A stretch of 64,000 nt of DNA from Escherichia coli 042 (GTDB lineage Bacteria; Pseudomonadota; Gammaproteobacteria; Enterobacterales; Enterobacteriaceae), in the NCBI RefSeq assembly GCF_000027125.1, contig NC_017626.1; one strand, written 5' to 3'. The notes below the pieces were generated by a model. That model did no database searches and had not been told where the DNA came from. It saw nothing but the letters and a program-made list of their open reading frames with translations. A program made the position numbers and the translations under genes. Positions within the stretch are counted from its first letter, which is position 1, and each line of letters begins with the position of its first letter. Shown here piece after piece: positions 39,993-54,938 of the stretch.

Positions 39993-42900
39993 TCAGAAGG
40001 TCACATTCAGCGTGGCCTGACTGTTATAACCTTCAGCGCTGCTGCCGCTGACGCTGTGGGCATAACCGGCCTGAACGCCCAGGGTGATATTTTCCCGGAC
40101 ACGGGCTTCCAGTCCGGCCTGCAGATCCAGTGAAGTGCCATTCTGTGAGGGAGAGAACGTCATCCCGCTGCCTGCGGTGGAGGTCCCCACACGCATATCA
40201 CCCCGGGAGCTGAAGGTGCGGATAACGGAAGGCTGTACCCACCAGTTCACCGGCAGTTCACGCACACTGTGTTTTGCACTGTCACGCAGGGGGGCACGGG
40301 ATGAGGTGCCTTCACCAAAGGTCATATCGTTGTGGCTGCCCAGACGGAAACCGGCACGCACATGTTGTGCACTGCCATGCCCGAACTTCACATAACCGGC
40401 GTTGTCCTTACCGTCATCCAGCGAAAGCCCCTGCCAGGTGTACTGCAGCCGTGGCTCCAGCATCAGGTTGTCAGTAATACTGAAGGGCAGACCGGTTTCC
40501 AGTGAGCCCAGCCAGCCCCAGCCCCGTGCGCGGAAGTCGTTATTGCCCGATGACGCTTTCATACTGTGGCGGGTTCCCTGTGCCACAATGTCAGCCCACA
40601 GGCCGGAGGAGGTGTGTGTCAGGTTCATATATCCGCCCAGGCTGCCGGCATCATCCCGGACCGTGCCGGCGCGGGAGCCGTCATCATCCTTAACATCAAC
40701 GGAAGAATGGCCTGCAGCACCATACACTCCTGTCGTCAGTGACATACCGGCGACCTCTGTTCTGAGCAGGTCACCCTCCAGACGGACGAAGCCATAGCTG
40801 CCGCTGCTTTCCGGCGTGGCCCCACGGGCAATACCGCCGTTGTTATCGTGACCGAGATGGCCGCCCTGAATGCTGAGACGGACGCTGTTATTTTCACCGT
40901 TTACACCGGTCTGATGGCTGCGTGAGCCTGCCAGAATCCGGTCATAGTCCATTGCCTGTGTCAGCATGGAGGCGTACAGGGGGACTTCAGCACGATAACG
41001 TTCTTCACTGCGCAGATACCAGCTCTCATCACTGTCCCGGTTGAGGGTGTAGTTAAAGGCCCCGGCCTGCAGCATATTCCCCTGGACAAAAGCCCCTTCC
41101 TCCGTGGTGGCACCGTTAATGGCCTCAACCACCTGAATACCCTTACCGGTGGTCGCCAGCCCCGTACCACTGTTGCCGGCGTTCACCAGATTCAGGATGG
41201 TTTTTCCGGTTGCCCTGCCACCGTCAATGACCAGTCTGTCAGCATTGTTCTGCGCCATATCCGGGCGTACACGCAGGCTGATGGTGCCATTCTGCCCGTT
41301 CAGGTTTTTCACCTGCAGGGTTGCCGGTACGAACTTCCCTGTGCGGGTGGAGGTGAAATGAATCTGTCCGGCATGGCTGAGGTCATCCACCACCGACTGC
41401 ACCGTGGCGTTATCAGGGATATTCCAGGTGGCACCGGATGTCAGGGTGACATTCGTGGGGTCAATGGCACCGTTCAGCACTGTGCTGCCGGTCAGCTTCA
41501 GGGCCGTGCCGCGCTGAGCGATGACATCCGTGGTGACGGTACTGTCGTTCAGCGTCAGCGTGCCTTCATTCAGGTTGACGGTTTTCTGGGTGAGTGTGGT
41601 GTTGCTGACAGTGAGTGTGCCACTTCCTGATTTTTCCACCCTGCCGTTACCGGTAAGAGCGCCTCCCTGCAGGAGTGCATCACCTTCACGGATGGTCAGG
41701 GTATCGTTATTCACCGTTTTCCCGGAAAGGGTAAGCGTGGCACCGTTATTCAGCGTGGTGGTGCCCGCCAGCGAGCCCCCTCTGGCAGTGAACAGTCCGC
41801 CATTTACCGTGGTATCCGTGGCCGTATCACCGGCGTTCAGCGTGAATGAACTGCCTTTTTCCAGCATCAGGGCATCCGCCTGACCGCCCCCGATACGGAA
41901 TGCCGTTCCGTCGCTCCGGGTACCACTGACAGCGGCCCCGGAATCGGCCAGCAGTACACCGCCATTCCCCATGGATACGGTGGTGGCGGCACCACCGTTG
42001 CGGACATCCAGCGTTCCGCCATCATCCACACGGGTATTAGTGGCTGTGTGTCCGCTCAGCACATCCAGACGTCCGCCATTTTCCAGTACGACATTATCAG
42101 CCTTACCCGCCAGAACGGAGAATGCTCCCAGGCGGTTTGTGCCGGTGACGGTTGCAGCTGTGCTGGTAACCAGTGCACCTCCCGTGTTCTGGGTGACATC
42201 AGACGCTTTACCGCCGGCATTCACCTGCAGCTTTCCTTTCTGGTTGATGGTGGTATGCGCGGTAGTTCCTCCTTCCTTAATCACCTGCCAGCCCCCCTCG
42301 TTAATTACCGTGTTCAGCGCAAGTCCGTATTTGTGCACATACTGGTTTCCTCCCTCCAGCCGGGTGTTATGTGCCTCGCCGTGTACCGTCTGGTCACCGC
42401 CGGCGTAAATGAGGGTGTCCCGTGCCATCCCCGAAGACCAGATAACCTGCCGGCCATTTTTGTTGATGGTGGTGGATTCAGCCGTCCCTCCGACCATCTG
42501 ACCGCTGGACACATTTTCAGACTCCGGACCACCTTCTGCACCGGTGTTGACGATGGTTCCGGTTGCCTGCCCGCCATGTTTAATGGTCTGGTAGCCAGAC
42601 TGGTTAATCACCGTTCCGGATGCACTGCCGCCTGCATGTATCCATTGTTCACCACCGTTAAGGACAGTACCGTAAGCCTGCCCGCGCAGATTCTGTCCTC
42701 CACCGGCACTGATAACCGTATCCGTGGCACTGCCACCTGCCATGACATCCTGCAGACCGTTTGCGGTGACCGTGGTGTTTCTGGCAGTGCCACCCCGGGC
42801 TATCTGCTGACCGCCGGTGTTGTCATCAGAGTCCGGCCCCAGCTCAAGCCCGGTACTGACAGTCACGCCATCAGCTGTTCCGGATACAAACTGGTTGTCA

Positions 42901-43112
42901 TGGTTTACCAGTGTTCCGCCATTCACTGTTTCACCCGGGTGCACAACGATGTCAGCAGCCAGCACCGGGAGTGACGTGACTGCGGCAAGAGACAGTGCAA
43001 CCGCCACACCGCCACGTTTACCCCGTGCGCGGGCCAGTTCGGAGGCAACCACGAAAGCGCCCGTAATGTGATTCCATACCAGCCTGTAGCAGGTATTCAG
43101 ATGTCGTTTCAT
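39993..43112 (-). CDS. flu: Antigen 43 (Ag43/Flu) self-associating autotransporter adhesin (1039 aa from MKRHLNTCYRLVWNH)
   Basis: Signal peptide, repetitive beta-helix passenger and C-terminal beta-barrel; ATG at 43110-43112. Confidence 0.92.
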   Translation of the reverse strand: MKRHLNTCYRLVWNHITGAFVVASELARARGKRGGVAVALSLAAVTSLPVLAADIVVHPGETVNGGTLVNHDNQFVSGTADGVTVSTGLELGPDSDDNTGGQQIARGGTARNTTVTANGLQDVMAGGSATDTVISAGGGQNLRGQAYGTVLNGGEQWIHAGGSASGTVINQSGYQTIKHGGQATGTIVNTGAEGGPESENVSSGQMVGGTAESTTINKNGRQVIWSSGMARDTLIYAGGDQTVHGEAHNTRLEGGNQYVHKYGLALNTVINEGGWQVIKEGGTTAHTTINQKGKLQVNAGGKASDVTQNTGGALVTSTAATVTGTNRLGAFSVLAGKADNVVLENGGRLDVLSGHTATNTRVDDGGTLDVRNGGAATTVSMGNGGVLLADSGAAVSGTRSDGTAFRIGGGQADALMLEKGSSFTLNAGDTATDTTVNGGLFTARGGSLAGTTTLNNGATLTLSGKTVNNDTLTIREGDALLQGGALTGNGRVEKSGSGTLTVSNTTLTQKTVNLNEGTLTLNDSTVTTDVIAQRGTALKLTGSTVLNGAIDPTNVTLTSGATWNIPDNATVQSVVDDLSHAGQIHFTSTRTGKFVPATLQVKNLNGQNGTISLRVRPDMAQNNADRLVIDGGRATGKTILNLVNAGNSGTGLATTGKGIQVVEAINGATTEEGAFVQGNMLQAGAFNYTLNRDSDESWYLRSEERYRAEVPLYASMLTQAMDYDRILAGSRSHQTGVNGENNSVRLSIQGGHLGHDNNGGIARGATPESSGSYGFVRLEGDLLRTEVAGMSLTTGVYGAAGHSSVDVKDDDGSRAGTVRDDAGSLGGYMNLTHTSSGLWADIVAQGTRHSMKASSGNNDFRARGWGWLGSLETGLPFSITDNLMLEPRLQYTWQGLSLDDGKDNAGYVKFGHGSAQHVRAGFRLGSHNDMTFGEGTSSRAPLRDSAKHSVRELPVNWWVQPSVIRTFSSRGDMRVGTSTAGSGMTFSPSQNGTSLDLQAGLEARVRENITLGVQAGYAHSVSGSSAEGYNSQATLNVTF

Positions 43113-43304
43113 CAGCATTTCCTTAATCAGAGTGAGGGTGAATAAAAAAGCCGGTATCCACAGATGTGGATACCGGCAGGTAAAGGGTTACAGTGCCGGA
43201 GGTCCGGCTGACGGAAGTTTCTGACGTGTGGCTCTGTTGTTCCCTGAATCTCATGTCTGTGTGTATCTGCGCACGTTGCTAACAGGAGTTATTATTAGCA
43301 TGAC

Positions 43305-43445: not shown

Positions 43446-44357
43446 TCAGAAGAAGATCCAGTTCCATACCGCGCGGGCAACAGAGACCACGGTGTCACGA
43501 ACAGCGCGCAGGGCCGTACGGACAACAGAGGCAACACAGACGCTCTCCGCTGTGTCAAATATCCGGTCCACCGCACCGGTAAACTGTTCACGGGCCTGAG
43601 AGCGGACAGACTCCGTGCGCAGCTCGTCCTGCAGTCGGGTCATCAGGGGGCTGGCGGCATGGTCGGGAAGCGCTGTCATGAGCGCACTGACCAGCGTATC
43701 CAGTTCCCAGCCGGTGCGGGCCGATACGGCAACAACCGGATGTACGGGCCGGAACAGACGGAATACCGCCTCCGTTTTCTCACGAATGTTCTGTTCCTGT
43801 GCGGGAGAAGGCTGAATACCTGCCATATCCCATTCATGGCAGGGTTCCGTTTTGTCAGCCTGCGTCACCACAAACAGCACCTGCTGATGTCCGCACTGCA
43901 GGATGTGTCGCCAGAAATACTCATCCACAGACAGGGCCCGGTCATCGGCTTTAATCAGCCACAGCACCAGGTCCAGTTCAGGCAGAATGTCACGGTACAG
44001 GGCTTCATACTCTGCATCCCTGTCCCGGCTCTCGCCCACCCCGGGCAGGTCAGTGATAACCATGCTGTGACCGTGACCACTCAGACGGAAGCGCTGCACT
44101 TCCCGGGTGCCGGCGTGAACATCACTGACCGGTGTGACCTCCCCCTGAAACAGTGCATTACAGAGTGAAGATTTACCGGCCCCGCTTTTACCCATAATGC
44201 CAATCACGGGTTCGTGACTGGTGAGTTTGCGCAGATGTTCCAGGATGTGACGGGAAAGTGAGTAAGGCAGGGAGGAGAGCGGTTTTTCAATTGCCTCAAT
44301 GGCATCAGACGGATTCATACATGTATTCCCGGTGAAAAAAGACAAAACCCCGCGCAC
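43446..44357 (-). CDS. YeeP/YfjP/YkfA-family GTPase (50S ribosome-binding GTPase domain); probable start at MNPSDAIEAIEK (44318)
   Basis: P-loop GIMGKSGAGKSS and an intact reading frame (yeeP is a pseudogene in K-12); upstream of agn43 as in CP4-44. Confidence 0.85.
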   Translation of the reverse strand: MRGVLSFFTGNTCMNPSDAIEAIEKPLSSLPYSLSRHILEHLRKLTSHEPVIGIMGKSGAGKSSLCNALFQGEVTPVSDVHAGTREVQRFRLSGHGHSMVITDLPGVGESRDRDAEYEALYRDILPELDLVLWLIKADDRALSVDEYFWRHILQCGHQQVLFVVTQADKTEPCHEWDMAGIQPSPAQEQNIREKTEAVFRLFRPVHPVVAVSARTGWELDTLVSALMTALPDHAASPLMTRLQDELRTESVRSQAREQFTGAVDRIFDTAESVCVASVVRTALRAVRDTVVSVARAVWNWIFF

Positions 44358-47599: not shown

Positions 47600-47806
47600 T
47601 TACGGACGGGATTGTGCAATACGCGCCTGCAACCAGGCTTCCACTTCACTTTTCAGCCATCGGGAGCTGCGGCCGAGTTTGATGGGGGCCGGAAAGGCAC
47701 CATCCTTGATGAGCTTGTAAAACCACTTATCGGTTAAGCCGGTCAGTTGAGTGATAAACGCCATGTCGACCATCTGGTCATCCATCAGCGAAACTGGGGT
47801 ATTCAT
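47600..47806 (-). CDS. alpA: AlpA-family phage transcriptional regulator (68 aa from MNTPVSLMDDQM)
   Basis: Matches the CP4-57 AlpA MerR-like HTH protein; ATG at 47804-47806. The ORF-track start is an extension. Confidence 0.8.
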   Translation of the reverse strand: MNTPVSLMDDQMVDMAFITQLTGLTDKWFYKLIKDGAFPAPIKLGRSSRWLKSEVEAWLQARIAQSRP

Positions 47807-48504: not shown

Positions 48505-48717
48505 ATGGAAGTTAAAACCAAAGAAGACTGGCTGTATCAGTTCCGTCGTTGTTCATCCCGGGAGACGCTGGAAAAAGTGATTTCCCACACACGTTATAAA
48601 CTTACCCTTGCGGAGCTGGAAGCCTTCAACTCTGCGGTTGATCACCGACTGGCAGAACTAACCATGAACAAACTTTACGATCGCGTTCCGGCTTCTGTCT
48701 GGAAATATGTTACCTGA
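48505..48717 (+). CDS. Hha/YmoA-family haemolysin-expression-modulating protein paralog (70 aa)
   Basis: ...[50 protein letters not shown] aligns closely with chromosomal Hha (..[50 protein letters not shown]). Confidence 0.8.
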   Translation: [70 protein letters not shown]

Positions 48718-49333: not shown

Positions 49334-49903
49334 ATGACATACGAGTACAACCCCTTCTGGCAACAACGTATCCGTGAGACGGTGCTGCGCGCACTGGATG
49401 TTCATCCCCGTCTGACGGCATTGCGGATTGACCTGCGTCTCCCGGATGTACCGGCAGCAACTGACGCAGCAGTGATATCCCGCTTCATCAATGCCCTGAA
49501 AGCCCGAATCGATGCTTATCAGAAGCGTAAGCGCCGTGAAGGCAAACGCGTGCATCCCACAACCCTGCATTACGTCTGGGCCCGGGAGTTTGGGGAGTGC
49601 AAAGGTAAAAAACACTATCACCTGATGCTGCTGGTCAACCGGGATACCTGGTGTCGTGCCGGCGATTACCGCGCTCCGGGATCACTGGCCGGGATGATTA
49701 AACAGGCGTGGTGCAGTGCCCTGGGAGTGGATACCGGAGATCATACCACGCTGGCGCATTTTCCGGTCAGGCCGGCGGTGTGGCTGGAACGCGATGATGA
49801 CACCGGCTTTCAGCAGGTGCTGGAGCGTGCTGACTATCTGGCGAAGGAGAGTACCAAAGCTTACGGCACCGGTGAGCGCAACTTTGGCTGCAGTCGTGGC
49901 TGA
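49334..49903 (+). CDS. YagK/YfjJ-family protein (inovirus Gp2-like), 189 aa
   Basis: Family assignment from recalled similarity to the CP4-6 YagK and CP4-57 YfjJ proteins. Confidence 0.6.
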   Translation: MTYEYNPFWQQRIRETVLRALDVHPRLTALRIDLRLPDVPAATDAAVISRFINALKARIDAYQKRKRREGKRVHPTTLHYVWAREFGECKGKKHYHLMLLVNRDTWCRAGDYRAPGSLAGMIKQAWCSALGVDTGDHTTLAHFPVRPAVWLERDDDTGFQQVLERADYLAKESTKAYGTGERNFGCSRG

Positions 49904-50064
49904 GCCCGACAGACGACTTATCTGACCTTAGTGTGATGACGTGTTCACAGCGACCACACTGATTTTCCCTTCTGAGACTGAACTGAAAACCGCCATTCAC
50001 ACCCTGACCACGCTGCCCGTACCGGGACGGCTGTTGCCTGCGTGTCGTCTGGCGGCTGAGGAAT

Positions 50065-50454
50065 ATGACGATGTACGCAAAATCCTTTCTCGCACTTGAT
50101 GGCAACGGACGTCTGACCGGTGCCCGTACCGCACAGACAGCGCCATACGATCGTTACACCTGCCACCTCTGTGGCAGTGCTCTCAGATACCACCCGCAAT
50201 ACGACACTGAACGTCCCTGGTTTGAACACACTGACGACGGGCTGACTGAGCATGGTCATGAGTGCCCTTATGTCAGACCGGAGCGCAGAGAAATACTGTT
50301 GATTAAACGCTTACGGCAATTCGTACCGGACGCCTTACCCGTAGTGCGTAAAGCCAGCTGGCACTGCAGACAATGTCACCACGATTATTATGGGGAGCAG
50401 TACTGCACACACTGTCATACAGGGCGCTTCAGTGAGGAGGTGGTTGCAGAATGA
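50065..50454 (+). CDS. Cys/His-rich zinc-ribbon protein (129 aa), module A of a tandem pair
   Basis: CHLCGS...WFEH...WHCRQCHHDYYGEQYCTHCH motifs. Confidence 0.5.
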   Translation: MTMYAKSFLALDGNGRLTGARTAQTAPYDRYTCHLCGSALRYHPQYDTERPWFEHTDDGLTEHGHECPYVRPERREILLIKRLRQFVPDALPVVRKASWHCRQCHHDYYGEQYCTHCHTGRFSEEVVAE

Positions 50455-50863
50455 ACGGTATAAAAACGGGGCTGGGATCACGCCGGGTGAGCACATTATC
50501 AGTGCCGATTCTGCGCTCAGCAGAAATATCCGGCATTGTTTCTGTCTTTCCTGTCGTGGCCGGTTGATTTTGCAGACAGATGCTCAGGGGGCGTGGTTTG
50601 AGCACGATTTACATGCCCTGAGCGCGCAACAGAAGGCGGCCTGCGTGGTGCTGAATCCGGAAAAATCCCATCCTTACATTGATGATATGGCGATGTTTTT
50701 ATCGCCATTACCTGTCGTGCTGGAGTGGCATTGTGTGATGTGCGGGCAGCATTTTTCCGGGAAAAAGTTCTGTGAAGCCTGTGGCACGGGGATTTATTGC
50801 AGAGCGGCATGTACGAAGTATGTTTACAGATACCAGCCAGATTTGCTCCGGGACCAGGAGTGA
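50390..50863 (+). CDS. Cys/His-rich zinc-ribbon protein, paralogous module B; start uncertain (the first ATG lies 65 nt inside module A in another frame)
   Basis: CFCLSC...WFEH...WHCVMCGQHFSGKKFCEACG parallels module A. Confidence 0.45.
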   Translation: MGSSTAHTVIQGASVRRWLQNERYKNGAGITPGEHIISADSALSRNIRHCFCLSCRGRLILQTDAQGAWFEHDLHALSAQQKAACVVLNPEKSHPYIDDMAMFLSPLPVVLEWHCVMCGQHFSGKKFCEACGTGIYCRAACTKYVYRYQPDLLRDQE

Positions 50864-51135
50864 GGGAGATGCGACATAATTACTTGATCATGCCAGTCAT
50901 GCCCCTGCCGGATCCGGATGTGGTCCGGCGCTTTGTTCCGCGGACGGTGGCTCACTGGCTGTGTCTGCTGATGATCCTCTTTATGCGACATTCAGACAGG
51001 GGAGACATCGATAAACATCATCATCTGCGGGCAAATAGTTACACAGAATGATCATTGCTACCGGTTATGGCAAAACTTGGTGATGACCAGGTGAACCATC
51101 GGTGCTTCCGTTGATTCTTATGGACTGATAAAGTT

Positions 51136-51795
51136 TTGTCAGCTGAATCTTTATACGGAATGCTCTTCAGTATGCGTACACAAATTGACTATCTGGCGGA
51201 TAAATACTGTTTTACAGAACGGAACGAATCGCCCCGTCTTCGCCAGCAGTGGCAGGATGTTCTGGAGGAGTGCCGGCAGACAGAGGCCGGGCCAGAAGAA
51301 CGGCTGCGTATTGCACTGCTGAATGTGGATTACGTCACCAGTTTTGAACTGCCTTTTCGCTTGTTGCTTACCCGTACACCACAACTGATTGCTGCGCTGC
51401 GTGAAGAATGGGGAATCAGCCAGAAAAATGTGGTGTTTAACGATAAACGGTTTGGCTGCGTGTACAGCCTGAAGGCCAGCCTTTCTGGTGTGCCGGATAC
51501 ATTCCGGTATCATCTGTCTCATCGTATTCGTCGCGTGGTTGGGAATGAAAACACATCATTGCCATATCAGCAGGTTGCCCGGGAAGTGAAAGCGCCCCGT
51601 GAACGGCTGAAGTATGCACTGGAGGCGGGTTTACTGGTGACTGCACTGGACGGCCTGTTCTGGTTTGGCAGTCAGCGTATTGCGGCTGATGTTCTGAGGC
51701 TGAGAAAGGCCGGAATGCCGGTGGTGACCACGACCGTGGAGGTGCACGATAACCTGACAGGAACAACCCGCAAAGTACCGGCATACCATCTCTGA
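51136..51795 (+). CDS. Hypothetical protein (219 aa)
   Basis: Long ORF with typical coding composition; no family recognised. Confidence 0.45.
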   Translation: MSAESLYGMLFSMRTQIDYLADKYCFTERNESPRLRQQWQDVLEECRQTEAGPEERLRIALLNVDYVTSFELPFRLLLTRTPQLIAALREEWGISQKNVVFNDKRFGCVYSLKASLSGVPDTFRYHLSHRIRRVVGNENTSLPYQQVAREVKAPRERLKYALEAGLLVTALDGLFWFGSQRIAADVLRLRKAGMPVVTTTVEVHDNLTGTTRKVPAYHL

Positions 51796-52176: not shown

Positions 52177-52368
52177 TTATTCTGTTTCTTCCCGGGGTTC
52201 GGGTTTGAATTTTCCCAGGAAGTTGTACATCGGTCGCATGCAGGGATGCGGATAGCCGTCCCGCATAAACACCACCCGGGTTTCCTCAACACTGGTCACG
52301 GTGACAAGCGCACCATGATCGTCTCTGTATCGCTGATTGATTTTCGGTAATGGAATATCTTCTGACAT
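52177..52368 (-). CDS. Hypothetical small protein (63 aa)
   Basis: ORF with a plausible RBS; no family recognised. Confidence 0.3.
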   Translation of the reverse strand: MSEDIPLPKINQRYRDDHGALVTVTSVEETRVVFMRDGYPHPCMRPMYNFLGKFKPEPREETE

Positions 52369-52797: not shown

Positions 52798-52874
52798 CAA
52801 AATTAAATCAGTGCACAAGGGGAGGCATCTGCGGTGATGGAACCCCTGAGATGCAGGTTTCACAGGAGAGAGCC

Positions 52875-53372
52875 ATGAGCAGTTCGTTTCAGAATGAAAT
52901 CCCGAAAGCAAGGGTAAATCTGAAATTAGACCTACATACGGGTGGTGGGCAGAAGAAAGTGGAGCTTCCGCTCAAACTTCTGGTTGCCGGTGATTTCAGT
53001 AACGGACAGGAAGAGCGTCCACTGTCAGAGCGTGTAAAAACGGATATTAATAAAAACAATTTTAATGATGTTCTGGCAGATATCTCCCCGTCTGTACATC
53101 TGAATGTGGAGAACACGCTTGCCGGTGATGGCTCTGAAGAGAGCATCAGCCTGACTTTCCGCAATATGAACGATTTCACGCCAGAGCAGGTCGCCCGACA
53201 GATTCCCCGTCTTAAAGCCATGCTGGCCATGCGTAGCCTTCTGCGGGACCTGAAAGCCAATCTGCTGGATAACGTGACTTTCCGTAAAGAGCTGGAAAAA
53301 ATTCTGCGTGACCCGGCACTGAGTCAGACGCTGCGTGATGAACTGCGTGCACTGGTGCCGGAAAAGGCGTGA
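52875..53372 (+). CDS. tssB: T6SS contractile sheath small subunit TssB/VipA (165 aa from MSSSFQNEIPKARVNLKLDL)
   Basis: Conserved TssB sequence; RBS AGGAGAGAG 5 nt upstream. Confidence 0.92.
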   Translation: MSSSFQNEIPKARVNLKLDLHTGGGQKKVELPLKLLVAGDFSNGQEERPLSERVKTDINKNNFNDVLADISPSVHLNVENTLAGDGSEESISLTFRNMNDFTPEQVARQIPRLKAMLAMRSLLRDLKANLLDNVTFRKELEKILRDPALSQTLRDELRALVPEKA

Positions 53373-53393: not shown

Positions 53394-54938
53394 ATGCTGA
53401 TGTCTGTACAGAAAGAAAAGAACGTTGCAGAGAGCGTGGTATCTGAAGCGCATGCCGGCGACAGCGTATATGCTTCCCTGTTTGAAAAAATTAACCTGAG
53501 TCCGGTATCTGCCCTGAGTGCACTGGATATCTGGCAGGATCCACAGGCCATGTCAGAAGCATCTGCAGATGAACGTCTGACGGCAGGGATGCAGGTGTTT
53601 ATGGAGTGTCTGGCAAAAGCCGGCACGCAGGTGGAAAAACTCGATAAAGCGCTGATTGACCATCATATTGCAGAGCTTGATTATCAGATCAGCCGTCAAC
53701 TGGATGCTGTGCTTCATCATCCGGAATTTCAGAAAGTGGAGTCGCTGTGGCGGGGCGTGAAGTCCCTGGTGGATAAAACGGACTTCCGCCGTAATGTGAA
53801 AATTGAGCTGCTGGATCTGTCCAAAGACGATCTGCGTCAGGATTTTGAGGATGCGCCGGAAATTATTCAGAGCGGCCTTTATCTGCAGACCTATGTGGCT
53901 GAGTATGACACGCCGGGTGGTGAGCCCATTGCCGCCCTGGTTTCAGCCTGGGAGTTTGATGCATCTGCACAGGACGTGGCGTTGCTGAAAAATATTTCCC
54001 GGGTGGCGGCATCTGCACATATGCCGTTTATTGGTTCAGTTGGCCCGGCGTTCTTCCAGAAAGAAACCATGGAAGAGGTGGCTGCCATCAAGGATATTGG
54101 CAACCACTTTGAGCGTGCCGAGTACATCAAGTGGAATGCTTTCCGTGAGACGGACGATGCCCGCTATATTGGCCTGGTGATGCCCCGTGTACTGGGACGC
54201 CTGCCGTATGGCCCGGATACCGTACCTGTCCGCAGCTTTAACTATGTTGAAGAGGTGAAAGGACCGGACCACCATAAATATCTCTGGACGAACGCGTCTT
54301 TTGCCTTTGCAGCCAACATGGTGCGCAGTTTTGTCACCAACGGCTGGTGTGTTCAGATCCGTGGGCCTCAGGCCGGTGGTGCGGTGCAGGATTTGCCAAT
54401 CCATTTGTATGATCTGGGAACCGGTAATCAGGTCAAAATTCCGTCAGAGGTGATGATCCCGGAAACGCGGGAGTTTGAATTCGCGAATCTGGGCTTTATT
54501 CCGCTCTCTTACTACAAGAACCGGGATTATGCCTGCTTCTTCTCTGCTAACTCCGCCCAGAAACCGGCGCTGTACGATACGCCGGATGCAACGGCGAACA
54601 GTCGTATTAATGCCCGTCTTCCCTATATCTTCCTGCTGTCCCGTATTGCGCATTACCTGAAGATCATTCAGCGGGAAAATATCGGTACCACCAAAGATCG
54701 CCGTCTGCTTGAGCTGGAGCTGAATAACTGGATCCGGGGACTGGTGACGGAGATGACCGATCCGGGTGATGAACTGCAGGCCTCGCATCCGCTGCGTGAC
54801 GGAAAAGTGGTGGTGGAAGATATCGAAGACAATCCGGGATTCTTCCGCGTGAAACTCTACGCCGTACCGCATTTCCAGGTAGAAGGTATGGACGTCAGCC
54901 TGTCACTGGTTTCGCAGATGCCGAAGGCAAAAGCGTAA
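53394..54938 (+). CDS. tssC: T6SS contractile sheath large subunit TssC/VipB (514 aa)
   Basis: Length and conserved TssC sequence. Confidence 0.95.
   Translation: MLMSVQKEKNVAESVVSEAHAGDSVYASLFEKINLSPVSALSALDIWQDPQAMSEASADERLTAGMQVFMECLAKAGTQVEKLDKALIDHHIAELDYQISRQLDAVLHHPEFQKVESLWRGVKSLVDKTDFRRNVKIELLDLSKDDLRQDFEDAPEIIQSGLYLQTYVAEYDTPGGEPIAALVSAWEFDASAQDVALLKNISRVAASAHMPFIGSVGPAFFQKETMEEVAAIKDIGNHFERAEYIKWNAFRETDDARYIGLVMPRVLGRLPYGPDTVPVRSFNYVEEVKGPDHHKYLWTNASFAFAANMVRSFVTNGWCVQIRGPQAGGAVQDLPIHLYDLGTGNQVKIPSEVMIPETREFEFANLGFIPLSYYKNRDYACFFSANSAQKPALYDTPDATANSRINARLPYIFLLSRIAHYLKIIQRENIGTTKDRRLLELELNNWIRGLVTEMTDPGDELQASHPLRDGKVVVEDIEDNPGFFRVKLYAVPHFQVEGMDVSLSLVSQMPKAKA

Follow-up and report, generated by a model that had tools for sequence, protein, structure and literature searches.

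A one-base deletion as the most probable origin of an out-of-frame pair of zinc-ribbon genes in Escherichia coli 042

Gene pairs overlapping by ATGA, in which the start codon of the downstream gene overlaps the stop codon of the upstream one, are common in bacterial operons encoding subunits of one complex. The pair described here, designated A and B, shares with them the 4-nt overlap and a Shine-Dalgarno sequence located inside the upstream gene, but differs in that the downstream partner B is frameshifted in the DNA analysed, coupling itself being deduced from the layout. Programmed frameshift genes such as dnaX, prfB and those of the IS3-family transposases likewise have in common with this locus the overlapping frames and a nearby Shine-Dalgarno-like sequence. 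At the protein level, an Enterobacterales island family characterised by the domains DUF7828 and Zn_ribbon_11 has the same domains, length class and Cys/His pattern as A and B and occupies the same position after a YagK/YfjJ gene; RefSeq holds proteins identical to A and to repaired B, A showing no difference from this family and B differing from it by a 1-nt deletion. RPB9-like double zinc-ribbon proteins resemble A and B in having two Cys-rich metal sites and a linker of similar length. As to the elements on which such genes reside, AlpA and a Gp2-like protein have been placed among the likely core element functions of Pseudomonas islands (10.1101/2024.08.29.610337).

The locus belongs to a 64-kb stretch of DNA of E. 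coli 042, hereafter the window, in which the original prediction had described two ORFs of 129 and 157 aa as tandem paralogous Cys/His-rich modules joined out of frame. Three readings had been offered, namely two coupled genes with a non-ATG start, one protein of two modules that a frameshift has inactivated, and a programmed frameshift. The evidence presented below argues strongly that the out-of-frame join arose when the downstream member of two separate and normally coupled genes lost a single base. That B is frameshifted is already recorded in public annotation (RefSeq/PGAP) and is not new.

Gene A, its paralog and their family

The positions on which the original prediction relied (ATG 50065, TGA 50452-50454, ATG 50390, TTG 50444-50446 and GAGGAGG 50434-50440) proved exact when checked against the sequence, as did the +1 frame of the B body relative to A. 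The longest ORF of gene A runs from ATG 50065 to this TGA and comprises 129 aa; judging from the sequence, the likelier start is ATG 50071, which gives 127 aa, since the family shows an invariant N-terminal MYAKSF, a GAGGA lies at 50058-50062, 8 nt upstream of ATG 50071, and the same start is chosen by PGAP. The second ORF extends from ATG 50390 to 50863 (157 aa). The features of the locus and of its surroundings are collected in Table 1.

Table 1. Features of the zinc-ribbon gene pair and of its surroundings, with positions in the window
Feature	Position	Strand	Basis or remark
1041-aa ORF, upstream backbone	39993-43118	-	
YeeP-like GTPase, upstream backbone	43446-44357	-	
'Helix-turn-helix transcriptional regulator', AlpA-like by position	about 47600-47806	-	PGAP
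Hha-like gene, upstream island backbone	48505-48717		
YagK/YfjJ, 'inovirus Gp2 family protein', 189 aa, upstream of A	49334-49903	+	Pfam, PGAP
Hypothetical protein, 52 aa, GTG start, overlaps A start	49941-50099		PGAP; no Pfam match
Gene A, intact, 127 aa	50071-50454	+	Pfam, PGAP CDS WP_000271022.1, invariant family columns, AlphaFold2
Shine-Dalgarno GAGGAGG for B, inside A 3' end	50434-50440	+	10 nt upstream of ATG 50451
Gene B, frameshifted pseudogene, 413 nt	50451-50863	+	PGAP 'frameshifted' in 100%-identical FORC_069
ATGA overlap	50451-50454	+	B ATG 50451-50453 overlaps A stop TGA 50452-50454
1-nt deletion site, B codons 8-10	50474-50476	+	GGG versus GGGG in intact alleles
B body, +1 frame relative to A, DUF7828 + Zn_ribbon_11	50477-50863	+	ORFs, Pfam
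Premature TGA for ribosomes from ATG 50451	50565-50567	+	Translation
Hypothetical protein, 60 aa, flanking the pair	50869-51051		PGAP
ECs1377-family protein, weak winged-helix match	51136-51795		NCBIfam, 327.7 bits
DUF4222 gene	52177-52368	-	
tssB, in type VI secretion cluster (52851 onward)	52851-53372		
tssC	53394-54938		

That the two ORFs are paralogs, as had been deduced from motif similarity, is supported by alignment statistics, BLASTP giving E=2e-10 with 31% identity over 83 aa between A and the window's own B body and E=4e-12 between A and the intact B of E. coli O55:H7 CB9615. With respect to the curated Pfam gathering cut-offs of 25.7 bits for DUF7828 (PF25165) and 24 bits for Zn_ribbon_11 (PF11682, formerly DUF3279), A scores 105.6 and 34.8 bits, respectively, whereas the corresponding values are 73.6-74.0 bits for the B body and 59.9-60.2 bits for B. 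The family, which had been reported as not recognised, is thus a catalogued one, and PGAP names both A and B 'putative zinc ribbon protein'; no mention of DUF7828, DUF3279, Zn_ribbon_11 or 'putative zinc ribbon protein' was found in the literature searched.

The predicted zinc ligands of A are C31, C34, H53 and C65, with the WFEH motif, and C99, C102, C112 and C115. In the family alignments C31, C34, F51, H53, C65, W97 and C99 are invariant columns, while C102, C112 and C115 are conserved in at least 90%; the counterparts of the ligand columns in repaired B are C32, C35, H52, C65, C95, C98, C108 and C111. Both proteins conform to the pattern C-x2-C...(W)FEH...C followed by W-x-C-x2-C...C-x2-C-x-(T)G. 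The description of the genes as tandem Cys/His-rich zinc-ribbon modules is therefore borne out by the Pfam matches and by the invariant Cys/His columns, and a typical member of the family is, as far as the sequence allows one to predict, a protein of about 130 aa with one CCHC and one CCCC zinc site.

Structure prediction of a single module, which had been suggested as a check, yielded a confident AlphaFold2 model of A (pLDDT 90.6, pTM 0.81; 40 sequences, model without metal) consisting of an N-terminal domain rich in beta-strands, a single helix (residues 72-81) and, at the C-terminus, a beta-hairpin predicted to be a zinc ribbon. A structural search returned no significant solved relative of this confidently predicted fold, local zinc-ribbon matches being obtained with RPB12, the MCM zinc finger and rubrerythrin, and in a sequence-profile search of the PDB the best match was RPB9 with E=0.064, which is below significance. 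A CoiA-N-like zinc finger, of which the C-x2-C...FEH...C element is reminiscent, was also considered and was not retained, Pfam showing no match of this kind even with the E threshold relaxed to 1. Against NCBIfam and PHROGs the two proteins matched nothing meaningful, and the PADLOC-DB defence models gave no match for A, B, the YagK/YfjJ gene or the ECs1377-family gene. The pI of the two proteins is near neutral (6.8 and 7.0), unlike that of the many DNA binders that are basic, and this counts against the functional proposal made below.

An exhaustive HMMER search, covering 1.84 billion cluster representatives, yielded no more than 169 relatives. Some members of the family are mosaics, combining an A-type DUF7828 with a B-type zinc ribbon (P0023), a B-type N-terminus with a C-terminus of a third type (P0169, P0176, P0187) or the reverse of the latter (P0195), and P0109 is grouped with them; to judge from their sequences, these mosaics suggest recombination between tandem or island-borne paralogs.

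The native start of gene B and the missing G

Two features were absent from the original prediction: the third-frame ATG at 50451-50453 and the lack of one G in the run at 50474-50476. The equivalent of ATG 50451 is the start of B in every intact homolog examined, and PGAP places the B start at the ATGA overlap in CB9615, STEC005 and FORC_069. The sequence of the last strain is 100% identical to that of the window over 49900-51000, and its PGAP annotation contains an A gene equivalent to 50071-50454 and a second gene, equivalent to 50451-50863, marked as 'frameshifted'. In CB9615 and STEC005, on the other hand, B is intact and its first 4 nt overlap the end of A. The alignment with CB9615 shows a single indel within the gene, the loss of one G by which GGGGCTGGGGATC becomes GGGGCTGGGATC in the window, while STEC005, whose island is syntenic, differs over ~1 kb by one substitution in A and by the same one-base indel. 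When one G is restored, B encodes a 137-aa protein identical to the translated B gene of STEC005 (PGAP WP_032255455.1).

As a consequence of the loss of one G, translation from the native ATG 50451 stops after 38 codons, the product consisting of MNGIKTGLG followed by 29 out-of-frame residues, so that only 9 of its 38 amino acids are native. The B body is thereby left in a shifted frame, from which its apparent out-of-frame join to A results, and since this frame is open upstream to both ATG 50390 and TTG 50444, gene callers report ORFs of 157 or 139 aa.

The deletion site lies within a short G run, and an assembly or sequencing error in this homopolymer could in principle have produced the missing G. 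Such an origin is, however, practically out of the question, the identical allele (exact 80-mer with GGG) being present in 42 independently assembled complete E. coli genomes, among which are 55989, many O104:H4 strains, FORC and NCCP strains and others; furthermore, ORFs existing only in the deletion allele are found on 68 contigs (157 aa; CAU99400.1 of strain 55989) and on at least 1,000 contigs (139 aa, TTG-started; O3M_04300 of O104:H4). The matching 81-mer with GGGG is present in 12 genomes and the intact 137-aa B protein on 427 contigs. Among the remaining ~1,800 genomes, the number of records in the 95-99% identity band increases from 713 to 1,010 when the GGGG query is used instead of the GGG query, and this shift toward higher identity indicates that most other alleles carry GGGG. 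The deletion is real, inherited and lineage-fixed in the island of the 55989/O104:H4 type, and B is very probably a recent frameshift pseudogene in the 55989/O104:H4 lineage.

A record labelled Escherichia ruysiae (locus L012, NZ_CABVLQ010000001.1) contains an A with 100% identity to that of the window, together with the same G-deleted B; this would mean either that the island, lesion included, was transferred from one lineage to another or that the species label of the record is doubtful.

A further question is whether B might still be made from TTG 50444 or from ATG 50390 inside A, in which case the deletion would merely swap its first 9 residues. Indeed, the B-body frame is open from 50390, TTG 50444 follows the Shine-Dalgarno by 3-6 nt (the first GAGG of GAGGAGG being 6 nt upstream), and both the 139-aa and the 157-aa versions are annotated by gene callers, the former, with its at least 1,000 contigs, in older O104:H4 annotations. 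Moreover, the B body is otherwise undamaged, although the sequence cannot show relaxed selection, since B has no mutations besides the deletion with respect to STEC005. However, TTG is a weak start and has to compete with the ATG 7 nt downstream, for which the same Shine-Dalgarno is at a better distance, and no intact homolog examined uses either alternative; with the N-terminal segment a conserved Lys is lost and also the beta-strand predicted as the first one in this family, and PGAP treats B as a pseudogene. Synthesis of a functional B by this route thus appears quite unlikely, and at most B would be expressed weakly from TTG 50444 with a foreign N-terminus.

The two-gene layout across Enterobacterales

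To the loci described above were added 25 further ones, one genome per species, fetched by using an alignment of A-type proteins only, and the six-frame ORFs of every fetched locus were scored with the family profile. An intact pair is present in 14 of the fetched loci, distributed over about 10 genera of Enterobacterales (Escherichia, Shigella, Salmonella, Mixta, Hafnia, Superficieibacter, Tenebrionibacter, Siccibacter, Apirhabdus, Enterobacter and Serratia). In all 14 pairs the second gene lies in the -1 frame, overlaps the first by 4, 10 or 13 nt and begins with an ATG that is aligned to profile position 1 and preceded, 5-8 nt upstream, by GGAGG or GAGG. The only loci deviating from this arrangement are the window, FORC_069 and L012, which have the same allele and in which the profile match begins at position 9.

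The comparison of island copies, by which it had been proposed to establish whether the two modules are fused elsewhere, thus reveals them as separate, overlapping and unfused genes in every intact pair, and the homologs consistently conform to the simple tandem gene pair that the original prediction had named as grounds for its own refutation. Of its suggestion of two coupled genes, the two-gene layout survives as the ground state of the family, while the proposed TTG 50444 start has to be replaced by ATG 50451. The involvement of a frameshift, and probably of translational coupling, had been foreseen correctly. The window itself retains the marks of a coupled pair, namely the ATGA at 50451-50454, the GAGGAGG at 50434-50440 and an overlap that is conserved in homologs. 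A second-gene ATG and Shine-Dalgarno placed inside the first gene constitute a layout that is typical of translational coupling and of partner proteins made in equal amounts.

B is closer to the second-position Salmonella paralog (36% identity, E=4e-21) than to A, which implies that the duplication is old and that both copies have been retained. Lesions of different kinds are found among the species representatives. The second gene of S. diarizonae is interrupted by a nonsense codon, and A is frameshifted in E. coli ECMA0423, Pectobacterium and Enterobacillus, so that decay of these genes is common.

The notion of a single two-module protein split by a frameshift at the junction might draw on the existence of rare ORFs of 225-240 aa that contain parts of two modules (P0371, P0372, P0373 and P0321). 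These ORFs, however, are few, the profile search giving 11 member sequences for P0371 (227 aa), 4 for P0372 (240 aa) and 1 for P0373 (225 aa) as opposed to thousands for the separate genes, and every one of them is devoid of part of one module, for which reason these partial fusions look like deletion products. No full two-module fusion (about 265 aa) occurs among the best 150 of the 169 cluster representatives, the homologs of A and B being single modules, almost all of 125-141 aa. In addition, the second module's own Met and the Shine-Dalgarno upstream of it are conserved across about 10 genera, and the frameshift of the window is located 23 nt inside B, at codon 9, and not at the A/B boundary. 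An ancestral fusion is therefore hardly credible, and this part of the original prediction has to be abandoned.

An equally poor case can be made for recoding, that is for a programmed -1 ribosomal frameshift or transcriptional slippage restoring B from ATG 50451. It is true that a -1 shift anywhere in 50451-50476 would produce a near-native B, that this segment contains A5 (50462-50466) as well as runs of G and that a stable hairpin (50470-50565; -42.2 kcal/mol, z -3.2) is found just downstream. Yet 50451-50567 contains no in-frame X_XXY_YYZ heptamer, the nearest sequence being the non-canonical A_AAA_ACG, and the homopolymers are short (A5, G4, G3); runs of this length are insufficient for efficient transcriptional slippage. 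As to the hairpin, its start is only 1 nt past the candidate site. The intact STEC005 allele has it to an equal degree (z -2.8), while it is found neither in the intact alleles of CB9615 and Shigella (z -0.6 and -0.4) nor in the second-position gene at six other loci (z -1.0 to +1.2). Being shared with intact STEC005 and not with the other alleles, it is allele-specific, predates the deletion and does not represent a conserved stimulator; its occurrence inside the 5' part of B may be due to chance, and no Rfam family is matched. Finally, the second gene is in frame from its own ATG in 14 of 14 intact pairs. Unlike dnaX, prfB and the IS3-family transposase genes, B lacks a slippery motif and has an intact sister allele; its shifted arrangement is not shared by the homologs, which have a single frame, and the structure is allele-specific, so that the programmed frameshift that had been envisaged is very improbable.

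Island context and possible role

The YagK/YfjJ gene, by which the pair is always preceded, matches Pfam YagK_YfjJ_C with 163.5 bits and, more weakly, REP_ORF2-G2P with 27.1 bits. The island backbone, which recurs in Klebsiella, Mixta and Apirhabdus, comprises a GTPase gene and a hypothetical one, both read from the other strand, and continues from AlpA onward, AlpA being followed by a 197-aa gene, YagK/YfjJ, zinc-ribbon gene A, usually a second paralog and variable cargo. In the literature on YfjJ, YagK and 'inovirus Gp2', the neighbouring gene appears simply as an entry among the island core genes. The 1041-aa ORF upstream is one which we take to be probably an Ag43-type autotransporter. No tRNA genes are present anywhere in the 64-kb window.

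Downstream of the pair, tssC of the type VI secretion cluster is apparently full length in the window and truncated in FORC_069. Between YagK/YfjJ and A, the loci of Apirhabdus, Tenebrionibacter, Siccibacter and Enterobacter contain a further small ORF, the third, which is absent from the window (L025:4412-4864, L021:4581-4862, L023:4631-4864 and L026:4595-4864); its product of about 150 aa is very basic (pI about 10.7) and ends with a Zn_ribbon_11-like motif, WKCPRCRRQYCGARPCPVCF.

Regarding the function of the pair, it may be envisaged that A and B, made in fixed proportion through coupling, would form a zinc-dependent complex acting as the partner of the Gp2/Rep-like YagK/YfjJ protein in the AlpA-controlled island backbone. 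The gene order makes it conceivable, at the level of a tentative suggestion at most, that A and B are zinc-dependent partners of YagK/YfjJ in island maintenance or mobilisation. The more specific proposal, in which gene order and coupling are taken together, that the coupled A/B constitutes a heteromeric two-zinc-site factor which, together with YagK/YfjJ, would serve the replication of AlpA islands, the control of their excision or their phage-dependent mobilisation, must be regarded as doubtful. Were this heteromeric reading true, the loss of B in the 55989/O104:H4 lineage would have either crippled the island function or rewired it via a TTG-initiated variant.

What had looked like a puzzle of recoding or fusion thus turns out to be an ordinary pseudogene with a one-base frameshift, belonging to a family that Pfam has catalogued, and the practical lesson is to look for a third-frame ATG overlapping the upstream stop codon (ATGA) before turning to non-ATG starts or recoding. 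The family is a small one, limited to Enterobacterales, in which the coupled paralogs are conserved as a pair next to a Gp2-like gene, and the islands that host it are very common in E. coli, Shigella and Salmonella, which makes it a reasonable target for studies of island replication and movement.
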